A stretch of DNA of 64,000 nt from assembly GCA_963781885.1 (NCBI GenBank), contig CAWAHW010000002.1, forward strand, positions 1,440,001-1,504,000. The letters run 5' to 3'. This stretch comes from an uncultured Spirochaetota bacterium. GTDB taxonomy: Bacteria > Spirochaetota > Spirochaetia > SZUA-6 > Fen-1364. Below are positions 43,464-47,141 of the stretch, one piece after another. Below the pieces are notes generated by a model that had not been told where the DNA came from, ran no database searches, and saw nothing but the letters and a program-made list of their open reading frames with translations. Each line of letters begins with the position of its first letter. Positions within the stretch are counted from its first letter, which is position 1. The translations under genes were made by a program, and so were the position numbers.

Positions 43464-44207
43464 CTAATCGCTCATCACGAAGCCGGCGGGGATCTCCAGA
43501 TTCGTGGCGACATTCTGGACGTCCTCGTGATCTTCGAGGTGCTCGACGAGGCGCAGGGCCTTTTCCGTCTTGTCGTTGTCCAGCGTGACATTCGTATCGG
43601 CCACGCGCACGATTTCCGCCATGGAGTGCTCGAATCCCTTTGCTTCCATGGCCTTCACGACCGCCTCGAAATCCTCCGGGGAGGTCGTCACCTCGATGGA
43701 GTCCGCGTCCGCGCTCACATCCTCCGCGCCCGCGTCGATGGCGACGGCAAGGATGTCATCCTCCTTGTACTTGGTGGCGTCGTAGTTGATGAGACCCTTG
43801 CGCTTGAACAGGTAGGCGACGCTTCCCGCCGCCCCGAGATTGCCGCCGCCCTTGTTCAGGAGGTTGCGTATCTCCGCGGCCGCCCTGTTCTTATTGTCCG
43901 TGAGGATGTCGATGAGAAGCGCGACGCCCCCCGGGCCGTACGCCTCGTAGAGGATTTCCTCATACGTGACGCCTTCAAGCTCGCCGGTGCCCTTCTTGAT
44001 GGCGCGGTCGATATTGTCCTTGGGCATGTTGGCGGCCTTGGCCTTCAGGATGACGGTGCGCAGCCGGGGGTTCATGTCCGGATCTCCCCCGCCCTGCCGC
44101 GCGGTGATGCTGAGCTCCTTGATGAGCTTCGTGAATGCCTGGCCTCGCTTCGCGTCCGCGATGCCTTTCTTATGCTTGATTGTATGCCATTTGCTATGGC
44201 CTGACAT
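43464..44207 (-). CDS. yebC: YebC/PmpR family protein
   Basis: MSGHSKW, NPRLR, YEAYGPGG, LTDNKNR, DVQNV. Confidence 0.96.
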   Translation of the reverse strand: MSGHSKWHTIKHKKGIADAKRGQAFTKLIKELSITARQGGGDPDMNPRLRTVILKAKAANMPKDNIDRAIKKGTGELEGVTYEEILYEAYGPGGVALLIDILTDNKNRAAAEIRNLLNKGGGNLGAAGSVAYLFKRKGLINYDATKYKEDDILAVAIDAGAEDVSADADSIEVTTSPEDFEAVVKAMEAKGFEHSMAEIVRVADTNVTLDNDKTEKALRLVEHLEDHEDVQNVATNLEIPAGFVMSD

Positions 44208-44267: not shown

Positions 44268-44500
44268 GGTATGCGGGTTTTTGCCAGCAATTGTCGGTTT
44301 GGCAACCGAATGATGCAGTTCTCATTTTGTCCCATGGTAATAGGCCATTCTTGCGCAAGAATGCCCGGTCGTCAGCTCCCGATGGTGCAAAATGAGACAA
44401 TATGAAGTGCCCCCAGGTGGTTGCTACAACGTGGATCGGCCGTATCATGAGATTGGCGTCTCGATGCGGCACGCCACAAACAACGCACAAGGGGGCAGTC

Positions 44501-45595
44501 ATGGGTATTGTACATTACGTTGGCATGGACGTCGACAAAGAAAAGATCGCCATAGCGATCCTGAGCGGGCGCGATCAGAAGCCGAGGGCCGAGACGGTGA
44601 TTCGCAATGAAAAGAGCGTAATCCAGGCCTATTTCAAGAAGCTCCAGTCCGCGGGGGACTTGGTGACATGCTACGAGGCGGGATGTCTAGGGTATTCCCT
44701 GTATCGACAATTGACGGAACTGGGTGTGCCGTGTGCGGTGCTGGCTCCGTCTCAGATTCCACATCGTCCGGGAGATCGCATAAAGACCGATAGAAGGGAC
44801 GCTGTGATGCTTGCTCGCGCACTTCGGAGCGGGGATGTGAGTGCCGTTCATGTACCCACGCGGGAAGACGAAGCGGTTCGCGACTATCTACGAATGCTGG
44901 AGGACATGAAGTCCGATCTGCGCAAGGCCAAGCAGCGCGTGCTGGGTTTTCTTCTGCGGAGGCGGATACGTTATGAACAAGGAGCCACATGGACGCAGCC
45001 GCATCGAGCATGGTTGCAGGCTCTTGAGTTGGAGGATCCGCTGGAGCAGTTGACTCTCACCGAGTACCGCTGCCAAGTCGACGAGCTGGAGGAGAAGTGT
45101 CGGCGGATCAAGGCGGGCATCGAAGAGATCGCGGCACGTAAAAGCTATGCCGAACCTGTAGCCAAGCTGAAGGCGTTCAAGGGCGTGGAGACGCTGATCG
45201 CCTTGTCGCTTGTTTCGGAGATCGGGGACTTTCGGCGCTTTGCAGGTGCGGATCAATTCATGGCGTTTTTGGGGTTGGTGCCCTCCGAGCGATCCAGCGG
45301 AAACAAGAGGCGCTTGGGAGGAATCACAAAGGCGGGTAATTCCCACCTGCGCAAACTTCTGGTGGAGGCCGCCTGGCAATACCGCAGCTACCATCCCAGT
45401 AGCACTCGGTTGATGAAACGACGCGAGGGTCTTTCTCCATCCTTGGTCAGCTATGCCAACCGTGCGTGCAGGCGGCTAAACAAGAAATTTCTGCGTCTGC
45501 TTTTTCGCGGCAAAGCTTCTCAGACCGTGGTGACGGCGGTGGCGCGAGAGCTCTCGGGGTTCCTGTGGGGCGCGATGGTTGATCGGGTGGCTTGA
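44501..45595 (+). CDS. IS110-family DEDD recombinase/transposase
   Basis: VGMDVDK, CYEAG, IKTDRRDA (D-E-D-D); C-terminal GLVPSERSSG..GGITKAGN. Confidence 0.95.
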   Translation: MGIVHYVGMDVDKEKIAIAILSGRDQKPRAETVIRNEKSVIQAYFKKLQSAGDLVTCYEAGCLGYSLYRQLTELGVPCAVLAPSQIPHRPGDRIKTDRRDAVMLARALRSGDVSAVHVPTREDEAVRDYLRMLEDMKSDLRKAKQRVLGFLLRRRIRYEQGATWTQPHRAWLQALELEDPLEQLTLTEYRCQVDELEEKCRRIKAGIEEIAARKSYAEPVAKLKAFKGVETLIALSLVSEIGDFRRFAGADQFMAFLGLVPSERSSGNKRRLGGITKAGNSHLRKLLVEAAWQYRSYHPSSTRLMKRREGLSPSLVSYANRACRRLNKKFLRLLFRGKASQTVVTAVARELSGFLWGAMVDRVA

Positions 45596-45610
45596 GGAGG
45601 CTGCGTATGC

Positions 45611-45819
45611 AATCGAGGCAACCGGGACGGATGGGGAAGGTTCGTGGCGAACGGAGAATCCTCGAGCGGTTCTGCAGGCAGACTATGGTCTGATCCTGGT
45701 AATGAGACGGAGGCAAGCTCCTGACGATCACATTGGCCTGCGGTAACCAATCCACGCATATCAGACTGGTCGATCGTCGGTTATGCCCTTCTCCATCTCT
45801 TCGGGTTGGCCTCGATGTT
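45611..45819 (+). ncRNA. Predicted bridge/seek RNA of the IS110 element
   Basis: Long closing stem (45612-45640 with 45787-45816) enclosing two internal-loop hairpins carrying target- and donor-matching segments. Confidence 0.75.
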
Positions 45820-45902
45820 CAGAAGGAGTTCTAAAGAAAAAAGGAGGCTTTTAGAGCTTGACGGGGGCACATCATATCAGAACTGCTGGGGTTTTTGCCC
45901 TG

Positions 45903-47141
45903 TCATGGCCACTGCACCGCGAGCTCCGGCAGGCCGTCTCTCTCGATTTGCACGGCGGCGTCGGCCAGGAGAAGGTCCAGGAGCATGAGGCCATCACCCG
46001 TCAGCCGTATCCGCGGCCCTCCCTCTTCTGGCACGGCCCATCCCTTTCGCTCCCACTGCTCCCACAGCCCGGGCAAGAGCTCTGCGAAGCTCCTGCCGAA
46101 TCGTCTTTCAAAATCCTTTCCCGCGATGCCATCGGCAAGCCTCAGCCCCATCATGAGTGTCTCCAGCAGCAGGTCCCGCGGAGAAACGGTCTCCACCTCG
46201 GCGCCCCACTGTGACTCGGCTCCCTTCAGGAATGCCTCGATGCTCTTGGGGTTGGAAAGCCGCACCGCGGCGCCTTTCTCCGTCCGGGCGCCGAGCAGTC
46301 TCTCCGCGGCTTCCATGGGCAAAGTCGAGACCGCCGCGGGCCCCGCACCTATGTATGGCTCGATCCTCCAATAGCGGATGTTGTGCCGACATTCCTTCCC
46401 TGCCCGCGCGAAATTGGACACCTCGTACTGCGCATACCTTCGGTTCTGCAGGGCAGCCCGACCGGCAAACCAGAGCTCCTCGTCTTTTTCCGCCGGATTC
46501 ATGACGATCTCTCCGCTTTCAACCAGCGCCTCCAGAGGTGTCCCCGGCTCGGTCGTGAGCTGATAGAGCGACACGTGGCCCGGCCAGGATTCGTCGACCA
46601 GCGCAAGGTCGCGCTCAACTTCCGCGACGCTCTGCCCGGGGATGCCGGCAATGAAGTCGAGGCTGAGCTCCCCGCGCCAGGCACGGTGAAGGAGCTCAAC
46701 GGCGTCGAGGCAATTCTTCCGCGATGCGTGACGGCGCAGGAGTGACAGCAACCGGGGCTGCAGACTCTGGATGCCGACGCTGAGGCGTGTGACGCCGGAA
46801 TCGCCGCAGAGCATGAGAAAGTCGCGGTCCAGGGTTTCCGGGTTCGCCTCGACCGTCCATTCCGAGGGCTGAAGCGGTGAGACGAAATCAAGCAACGACT
46901 TGAGCGTCGGTTTTGCGAGCACGCTCGGAGTGCCACCGCCGAAGAATACGGTCTGAACCCGGGGGTTCCCCGCGGCATCCAGCAGACGACGCGCCTGGAG
47001 CAACGTCTGTTCCGCCACGGCTGCCTGCACACTCTCCGTGACGCCGCGTTGGGGAACCGAGTAAAAGTCGCAATACAGGCACTTGTCCGTGCAGAAGGGA
47101 ACGTGGAGGTAGAGTGAAATGCCCTTTTCAGAGCGTGCCAA
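45903..47141 (-). CDS. hemW: Radical-SAM heme chaperone HemW (HemN-like)
   Basis: LYLHVPFCTDKCLYCDF, GGGTPS, TVEANP, YEVSNFA, HNIRYW. Confidence 0.9.
   Translation of the reverse strand: MARSEKGISLYLHVPFCTDKCLYCDFYSVPQRGVTESVQAAVAEQTLLQARRLLDAAGNPRVQTVFFGGGTPSVLAKPTLKSLLDFVSPLQPSEWTVEANPETLDRDFLMLCGDSGVTRLSVGIQSLQPRLLSLLRRHASRKNCLDAVELLHRAWRGELSLDFIAGIPGQSVAEVERDLALVDESWPGHVSLYQLTTEPGTPLEALVESGEIVMNPAEKDEELWFAGRAALQNRRYAQYEVSNFARAGKECRHNIRYWRIEPYIGAGPAAVSTLPMEAAERLLGARTEKGAAVRLSNPKSIEAFLKGAESQWGAEVETVSPRDLLLETLMMGLRLADGIAGKDFERRFGRSFAELLPGLWEQWERKGWAVPEEGGPRIRLTGDGLMLLDLLLADAAVQIERDGLPELAVQWP

Follow-up and report, generated by a model that had tools for sequence, protein, structure and literature searches.

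Nested mobile elements between hemW and yebC of a Spirochaetota bacterium: an IS110-family insertion sequence in the terminal repeat of a miniature transposon

The spacer between the genes hemW and yebC of an uncultured Spirochaetota bacterium carries an insert of 1604 bp, located in a 64,000-nucleotide stretch of contig CAWAHW010000002.1 that was analysed as a whole (hereafter the window). The insert is flanked by two copies of GGGTTTTTGC, at 44275-44284 and again at 45889-45898, and is made up of two elements: a miniature inverted-repeat transposable element (MITE) of 120 bp (44285-44396 and 45881-45888) and an insertion sequence (IS) of the IS110 family of 1484 bp that splits it. It is very probable that the two elements arrived in two steps, a MITE mobilized by a DDE-type transposase being followed by the RNA-guided insertion of the IS110-type element into the right terminal repeat of the MITE.

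Anatomy of the insert

The features of the locus, in window coordinates and with the elements before the neighbouring genes, are the following.

44275-44284, no strand: left target-site duplication (TSD) of the MITE, GGGTTTTTGC, adjoining the MITE start set by 13 other copies
44285-44302, plus: left terminal inverted repeat (TIR) of the MITE, CAGCAATTGTCGGTTTGG, which fits the TIR family CAGCAATTC.CA.TATGG common to the autonomous DDE insertion sequence
44285-44396, plus: left part of the MITE, 112 bp, with the core AG at its end (44395-44396); nhmmer 1.4e-33 to the MITE profile, 14-copy alignment
44316-44329, minus: internal inverted copy of the IS target 14-mer (CAGTTCTCATTTTG), unoccupied in 14/14 MITE copies
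44397-45880, plus: IS110-family (IS1111-like) insertion sequence, 1484 bp with one core AG, delimited by nine genome copies and by its junctions compared with empty MITEs; the boundaries can shift by up to 3 nt, AGA standing at both junctions
44400-44414, plus: left subterminal inverted repeat ATATGAAGTGCCCCC, 14/15 complementary to 45863-45877
44501-45595, plus: DEDD transposase/recombinase, 364 aa, with Pfam and NCBIfam matches and the motif GLVPSERSSG
45606-45822, plus: predicted bridge/seekRNA in the 3' non-coding region; minimum free energy (MFE) -87.5 kcal/mol, z = -3.0, consensus fold of five relatives
45665-45673, plus: predicted 5' strand (T) of the target-binding loop, AGCGGUUCU, complementary to top-strand AGAACTGCT, in equal register in relatives with other targets
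45701-45708, plus: predicted 3' strand (B) of the target-binding loop, AAUGAGAC, equal to top-strand AATG-AG and the first 2 nt of the IS left end
45757-45766, plus: candidate donor-binding segment CAUAUCAGAC, which fits the right-end terminus, the core and the first left-end bases
45863-45877, plus: right subterminal inverted repeat GGGGGCACATCATAT, read from the window
45881-45888, plus: right tip of the MITE, AACTGCTG, split by the IS from the rest of the right TIR; 8/8 readable right junctions equal CATATCAGAACTGCT
45889-45898, no strand: right TSD, GGGTTTTTGC, read from the window
43464-44207, minus: yebC (TACO1/YebC family), downstream neighbour of the insertion site; PF01709 7e-56, PF20772 4e-34
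45903-47141, minus: hemW-like radical SAM gene with a HemN_C domain, upstream neighbour; PF04055 1e-20, PF06969 9e-11

The base C follows both copies of GGGTTTTTGC and lengthens the repeat to 11 nt, the left C being also the first base of the MITE. The left end of the MITE (44285-44301) reads CAGCAATTGTCGGTTTG, and the sequence just inside the right copy of the duplication ends CATATCAGAACTGCTG. When the IS is taken out, CAAAATGAGA (44388-44397) and ACTGCTG (45882-45888) rejoin into a 17-mer, the reverse complement of which agrees with the left end at 13 of 17 positions, and the unit that is left is 120 bp long and non-coding. The direct repeats, the inverted ends and the size given in the original prediction, which was made from the letters of the window, are thus all correct. 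The GGGTTTTTGC repeat is not a chance one, because the ends of the element were set independently from the 13 other MITE copies of the genome.

The trinucleotide AGA is found at both IS junctions (44395-44397 and 45879-45881), which allows the cut to be set anywhere between 7 and 10 nt from the MITE tip. The 7 bp first proposed lie within this range; comparison with related elements sets the common core at AG and leaves 8 nt (AACTGCTG) on the right. For annotation, the 112 bp on the left and the 8 bp on the right of such an IS belong to another element and are not to be counted as IS ends.

The MITE family and its autonomous partner

The genome of the window (G000, 4.64 Mb in seven contigs, written as C1, C2 and so on) was searched by BLAST with the region itself, which returned a repeat of about 1606 bp in seven full copies, one further copy running into a stretch of N, one internally deleted copy, and two solo matches of about 115 bp. 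By means of an nhmmer profile of the left 116 nt, 14 MITE copies were found in the genome. Nine of them contain the IS, at one position and in one orientation, and five are empty. The left-junction string AATGAGACAATATGAAG and the right-junction string CATATCAGAACTGCT occur eight times each, all within IS-occupied MITEs. After removal of the IS the right end can be read as AATGAGAACTGCT in 12 copies, nine of which are filled.

The repeats flanking the 14 copies are exact over 9 bp in seven cases, over 10 bp in two (the window copy and C1:281318) and over 11 bp in one (C3:73078); in the remaining copies they comprise 8 exact nt (8/9) in two, a degraded repeat (6/9) in one, and an unreadable one where the far end lies in N. 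An 8-bp duplication at the window copy, allowed earlier as an alternative, departs from this family norm of 9 bp and is not retained. Among the empty copies, C1:386571 has an uninterrupted CAAAATGAGAACTGCTG and is flanked by two copies of CGATGCCGC (a 9-bp TSD), C6:136292 by two GGATGAGTG, C2:564281 by two GCCATTGAC, the divergent copy C3:41794 by two GCATGAGCC, and C2:799678 by two GGTGGACG (8 exact). In its length, its 14 copies, the inverted repeats of the window copy (13/17) and its duplications of mostly 9 bp, the unit has the features of a MITE, and the other and empty copies called for by the original prediction do exist, C1:386571 providing the intact right end.

The MITE was detected in four of 40 other genomes searched, all four of the same genus, and a near-identical IS gave no match among the 40 relatives, the congeners G005 and G019 included. 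All seven standard-type MITE copies inspected in G005 and G019 are empty, with flanking repeats of 8-9 bp.

These copies bear on a simpler explanation, according to which the whole 1604-bp unit (44285-45888) would be one transposon with a 10-bp TSD, either a duplicating relative of IS110 elements or a DDE-mobilized composite. Such a transposon would account for the repeat of about 1606 bp at seven places, for the own duplication of each occupied copy and for the 8-nt tip that is still present at the far end. However, empty 120-bp copies with their own TSDs occur both here (five) and in the two congeners, and the IS parts of the occupied copies are at least 99.87% identical vs 64-95% for their MITE parts in the 14-copy alignment, the latter belonging to distinct subfamilies; composite copying cannot give this pattern, and the explanation is judged extremely improbable.

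Compared with the window copy, the seven full-length and two partial IS copies show 0-2 differences in 1484 nt. At least two subfamilies can be told apart among the occupied MITE parts, and empty copies belong to each of them as well. Since the IS copies are near-identical and their host MITEs long diverged, the IS must have entered old, existing MITEs one by one and independently, always at one place.

The outer 18 nt of the MITE, searched with up to three mismatches, led to three more pairs of inverted ends, each 1653 bp apart. The element at locus L013 starts with CAGCAATTCGCATTATGG, ends with the complement of CAGCAATTCTAACTATGG, is bordered on both sides by ATTCCGCGC and contains an open reading frame of 437 aa. 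The three copies are identical (1653/1653), and each has its own exact 9-bp TSD and an open frame. An autonomous transposase element with the ends of the MITE had been proposed as a check and is hereby found, with the TIR CAGCAATTC.CA.TATGG. Similarity between the MITE and this IS is limited to the ends of about 18 bp; the TSD length of 9 bp is common to both (3/3 IS copies). The IS110-type element is present in 0/6 ends of the autonomous copies, and those ends are 3-4 mismatches away from the target 14-mer.

Homologues of the 437-aa protein number over 7000 at E <= 0.001; precomputed matches to PF01609 and/or PF13808 are present in some of the 120 listed, and one source name starts with 'Transposase IS4-like'. 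The catalytic domain DDE_Tnp_1 (PF01609) is that of IS4- and ISAs1-type transposases, in the ISAs1 type together with DDE_Tnp_1_assoc (PF13808). Against the IS4 model NF033592 the protein scores 16.9 bits (cutoff 115). Judged by its homologues and by sub-threshold Pfam matches, the partner would be of DDE type; the earlier wording 'possibly IS4-like' holds at the superfamily level and not beyond it. The sequence itself establishes that the elements are nested, that the IS is specific for its site and that an autonomous partner exists.

The duplications and the partner also decide on another explanation, in which the 120-bp unit would be a palindromic repeat resembling a repetitive extragenic palindrome (REP) or a terminator, not a DDE-mobilized MITE, and the IS would aim at its hairpin, as ISPa11, ISPpu9 and IS621 do at REPs. 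The unit is intergenic, an inverted repeat of 14-15 nt (44316-44329 and the rejoined right end) could form a hairpin, and REPs are classic targets of IS110 elements in the literature consulted. Nearly all copies, however, have site-specific direct repeats of about 9 bp, which REPs lack, and at its outer 18 bp the unit agrees with the ends of an IS (1653 bp) of the same genome, the TSDs of which are also 9 bp long; a REP-like origin is highly improbable.

Three arrangements in the genome were noted in addition. At locus L014 (G000:C1:278043-281330) three copies of the string GCTTCTCGG are present, one ahead of an autonomous DDE IS (278052-279704), one between this IS and an occupied MITE (279715-281318), and one after the MITE, which points to successive insertions into one stretch of 9-10 bp, one element lying 1 bp from the end of the other. 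A divergent MITE subfamily (G000 C3:41792-41913, L004 in G015 and L005 in G014) has the ends CGGYAAT.CTC... and ...GCAAAATGAGAA(G/T)(C/T)GCTG and an exact 9-bp flanking repeat at C3:41792; its right end is two positions off the IS target and 3/3 copies observed are empty. The MITE at C2:775866-776873 contains a defective IS in which the first 4 nt of the left end are joined directly to sequence from near IS position 600 onward; the transposase gene has lost its 5' half, the right part equals the window copy, and the MITE has a 9-bp TSD, TGATGAAAC.

The IS1111-like element and its predicted guide RNA

The 364-aa protein matches PF01548 (3e-13) and PF02371 (4e-22), both over the cutoff, and the model NF033542 of IS110-family RNA-guided transposases (237 bits, cutoff 140); it combines an N-terminal DEDD/RuvC-like domain with a C-terminal Transposase_20 domain, as expected of the IS110 family. 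All nine IS copies lie at one MITE site in one orientation, and no duplication is made by the IS: the core AG(A) is found once in empty MITEs and at both junctions in occupied ones.

The IS1111 subgroup is defined by a long non-coding region 3' of the transposase gene, and its transposases are described as having 330-350 aa and a GL-P----S/TG motif, with terminal extensions of 7 and 3 bp (PMC11187229, in the portion consulted). In the element of the window, 104 nt upstream (44397-44500) and 285 nt downstream (45596-45880) of the gene are non-coding, which is the layout of the subgroup, and GLVPSERSSG fits the motif. The subterminal inverted repeats of 15 bp (14/15) are slightly longer than the 11-13 bp usual in the subgroup. 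The predicted T strand (45665-45673) lies 5' of the B strand (45701-45708), and the two overlap on the target AGA, which is the order known from IS1111-type seekRNAs. On the left the terminal extension is ACA, 3 nt long, and on the right a single C together with the core AG, in place of 7 (or 6) and 3 bp, respectively; a 7-bp extension is obtained on the left side only, if the repeat is trimmed to 11 bp. The element is labelled IS1111-like, short of a proven subgroup member, because the 7/3-bp extensions and the 330-350-aa range are not found in it.

No circle joints were detected in the Logan contigs of four of seven sequencing runs, contigs that are unable to show rare circles. A hexamer TTGACG is located at 45858-45863, 17 nt before the IS end, and CTTGAC is conserved in 4/5 aligned relatives; the hexamer may serve as the -35 element of a promoter that circularization, by joining the ends, would complete, and no convincing -10 hexamer was found in the IS left end.

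The sequence of events would be as follows. In the first step, the 120-bp MITE inserted in the short hemW-yebC spacer and duplicated 10 bp (GGGTTTTTGC), presumably mobilized in trans by the 437-aa DDE transposase of the 1653-bp IS through the common 18-bp repeat. In the second, the 1484-bp IS1111-type element integrated in the right repeat of the MITE at ...AATG-AG-AACTGCT-G, 8 nt from the tip, by recombination at the common core AG and without duplication. The site would be chosen by a bridge/seekRNA from the 285-nt region downstream of the transposase gene: the 5' loop strand (AGCGGUUCU) would pair with the top strand of the core and right flank, and the 3' strand (AAUGAGAC) with the bottom strand of the left flank and core. 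The MITE family offers a multicopy landing site that avoids genes, a possible 'safe harbour' benefit. By separating the tip from the inner right repeat, the IS probably disables the MITE as a substrate of the DDE transposase.

A seekRNA encoded 3' of the gene, with the top-strand match first and both matches overlapping in the target, has been described for IS1111-type elements (Siddiquee et al., PMC11187229), and a bridge RNA in their right end was reported by Durrant et al. (PMC11208160); according to the portions of these articles consulted, RNA guidance was shown experimentally for IS1111- and IS110-type elements. In the window, the 217 nt at 45606-45822 fold into a long closing stem (MFE and z given above). 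Matching of k-mers between the non-coding region and the target was rejected as evidence, a 7-mer being reached in 273/500 shuffles. Because such plain word matches are not significant, the argument for a guide rests on structure and on relatives. The latter, with 41-67% protein identity, were collected from congeners and from a scan of species-representative genomes (11 loci). Five of their 3' regions align with conserved blocks, and compensatory changes are seen in 21 of the 58 pairs that make up the consensus fold. This fold contains an internal loop with a 5' strand after the conserved GAAUCCUCG, a 3' strand before the conserved GGAGGCAAGCUCC, and a variable hairpin between them.

The T strand of the window (AGCGGUUCU) is complementary to AGAACTGCT, that is, the core AG and 7/8 tip nt, with one G:T wobble. 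When the T strands of 11 elements were compared with their own core and right flank, 9 contiguous nt were obtained in L041, L042, L043, L044 and L045, 9 nt with one wobble in the window, 7 nt in G006 and 6 nt in two G016 copies; against the targets of other elements the means were 2.5-4.3 nt. The loop strands thus appear to track the target in the relatives, the first clearly and the second weakly. The candidate donor segment CAUAUCAGAC shows an exact match of 9 nt, and ATATCAG is invariant in the five aligned relatives; the donor-side assignment is tentative. The target 13-mer AATGAGAACTGCT has a chance expectation of 0.04 per genome, and all its exact copies but one are in the right end of a MITE. 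The guide fits the MITE right-end variant and not the TIRs of the three autonomous copies; a target with perfect Watson-Crick pairing (C for T at the wobble) is absent beside AATGAG in the genome. The predicted aim at an end of the DDE family is therefore upheld for the MITE variant, by fold and loop strands, and not for the autonomous TIRs, given their mismatches and empty ends. Altogether, RNA guidance of the IS is strongly suggested by these comparisons.

Several observations weigh against the two-step reading or its RNA-guided part. Folded as a whole, the 286-nt region reaches z = -1.8 only, and Rfam returned no matching family and no bridge-RNA family, its sole match (PK-BYV, E = 3.2) being by chance. 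Without the rG:dT wobble the T strand of the window pairs over only 5 contiguous nt, and those of L046 (5 nt) and L040 (4 nt) fit their own right flanks poorly; in L040 the T strand reads AGAATTGCA vs AGAAGCTTAC in the right flank, the left flank and the B strand being in agreement. The B strand matches its own targets over 4-8 nt and other targets over up to 4-7, a weak discrimination. Three intact MITE targets are still empty, a lone exact 13-mer AATGAGAACTGCT at C4:720262-720274, where there is no MITE, is unoccupied, and the inverted copy of the target within the MITE, some 30 nt from its left end, has 12/13 of the positions read by the guide and is never occupied (14/14). Either recognition needs more than these positions, or such near-perfect sites have merely not yet been hit. 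On the side of the partner, the 437-aa protein falls below the Pfam cutoffs, with 20 bits vs 23 for PF01609 and 20.1 vs 32.3 for PF13808.

To these is added the empty hemW-yebC allele with a single GGGTTTTTGC, proposed earlier as a check: it was looked for, and the exact allele was not found. In 10/10 relatives' loci examined (among L029-L039) hemW immediately precedes yebC in the same orientation, and the short spacer between them contains neither a MITE nor an IS. These relatives are other species (82-89% nt identity in the yebC 5' region, about 47-58% protein identity in hemW), and their loci neither confirm nor refute a single GGGTTTTTGC, because their spacers cannot be aligned through the insertion point. 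Metagenomes scanned for 22 nt covering the right TSD and the hemW stop yielded 0 contigs. None of the Logan contigs of the four sequencing runs spans the insertion site, which says nothing on the empty allele, on circles or on expression; one X1 Logan contig carries the IS, and its flank assigns it to the C1 copy.

Part of this evidence could be turned into the view that the IS homes on the MITE end by protein or DNA structure and that the loop matches are coincidental. The matches are short, exact 7-mers are frequent in the shuffles, the B loop is barely above the cross-controls, and two near-perfect sites are unoccupied. Against this, the T loop varies with the target, in the same register relative to the conserved stem, over five different right flanks, the fold is conserved with compensatory pairs, and RNA guidance is demonstrated by experiment for IS1111/IS110-type elements in the articles cited above (PMC11187229; PMC11208160, as far as consulted). 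Homing without a guide RNA is very unlikely, and two nested elements, the second of them RNA-guided, remain the favoured reading.

Related elements and known systems

Two sister elements extend the association with DDE transposons. In L042, from a Pirellulales metagenome-assembled genome (MAG), the sister IS (62% aa identity) has the flanks ...CATTT-AG-AATTGCTG; these can be read as the TIR CAGCAATTCT... belonging to the DDE family of the autonomous partner, interrupted at the same distance of 8 nt before its tip, and the T loop reads that tip. The insertion lies in the transposase-proximal terminal repeat of the DDE element. In L040, from a Spirochaetaceae MAG (67% aa), the left flank reads as the inner part of a TIR of the DDE family, but the sequence on the right does not match the tip and may be a replacement acquired later than the insertion. 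By tblastn, homologues of the G000 DDE transposase start about 100 nt from the IS in both (L040 1-1100, 52% aa; L042 1-1103, 47% aa), and no homologue was found in the other seven loci tested. These comparisons link some members of this IS clade, if not all, to the ends of a single DDE lineage.

The G018-type relatives L043, L044, L045 and L047, from MAGs labelled Terriglobales, NC10 and Spirochaetota, have the common target CATAG-AG-TTCAGTTGC. L043 1610-1670 and L045 2322-2380 are alike by eye over about 60 nt rightward and only about 12 nt leftward, as if these elements lay near the tip of another repeated element; no transposase was found in the right flanks of L044 and L045.

A wider view, put forward tentatively and held to be rather doubtful, is that the IS1111-like clade would be a specialized parasite of one DDE transposon lineage in Spirochaetota and Planctomycetota, with the guide retuned to follow variants of the repeat. 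Its members would lie in or beside the terminal repeat of this lineage, 8 nt from the tip wherever the position is resolved; in the genome of the window, the guide would have moved away from the repeat of the autonomous IS (AG-AATTGCT) and towards the MITE variant (AG-AACTGCT), which is present in more copies; and with 9/12 usable copies filled, the three active autonomous copies would be spared and keep making landing sites. If this is true, and if insertion disables the occupied end, an arms race of transposon on transposon would be legible in the guide sequence.

The element of the window is in any case a natural example of an IS110-type element, by prediction RNA-guided, which finds a harmless multicopy site in the terminal repeat of the miniature derivative of a transposon. 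The predicted guide strands are legible from the sequence and can be checked against relatives, the five different right flanks within one IS clade being natural pairs of guide and target, and the system allows a test of whether one mobile element may hold another in check. As direct precedents exist, the interest is that of the specialist and the finding comes without surprise.

In 2001 Muller, Lauf and Herrmann (Mol Genet Genomics 265:1004) reportedly observed that IS1383 of Pseudomonas putida H integrates specifically in the inverted repeats of IS1384. That system, as far as its description was available, resembles the present one in that an IS110-family element is aimed at the terminal inverted repeat of a DDE insertion sequence; the host there is a full-length IS, whereas here it is a 120-bp MITE of an IS family the autonomous copies of which are spared. 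Partridge and Hall (2003) reportedly found IS4321 and IS5075 in the terminal repeats (38 bp) of transposons of the Tn21 family. They would likewise be IS1111-family elements with subterminal inverted repeats, which occupy a single position, in a fixed orientation, within the terminal repeat of another transposon; they differ, within the available description, in that the host is of the Tn3 family and the family extensions are 7 and 3 bp vs 3 and 1-3 nt here, where the transposase has 364 aa.

In Coxiella burnetii RSA 493, IS1111 is located in QMITE2 for 20/21 IS copies; QMITE2 has variable direct repeats of 7-11 nt, and copies that are empty in one strain are filled in another (Wachter et al., 2018; PMC5896051, in the portion consulted). 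An IS1111-family element nested in a MITE is common to both cases, but the target there is a GTAG REP inside the MITE, in contrast to a terminal repeat cut 8 nt from its tip, with an autonomous partner present, in the window. With the seekRNAs of ISEc11, ISKpn4 and ISPa11, as described in the text consulted, the element shares an RNA 3' of the gene and the top-strand match first, both predicted here from the sequence. From IS621 it differs in its protein, which is only remotely similar (E = 1e-7, residues 222-289). A literature search of limited coverage for IS110-family elements in MITE terminal repeats returned only the precedents named and no description of this element. The nested homing of IS110-family elements on transposon ends has direct precedents, and the element between hemW and yebC adds a new case to them.

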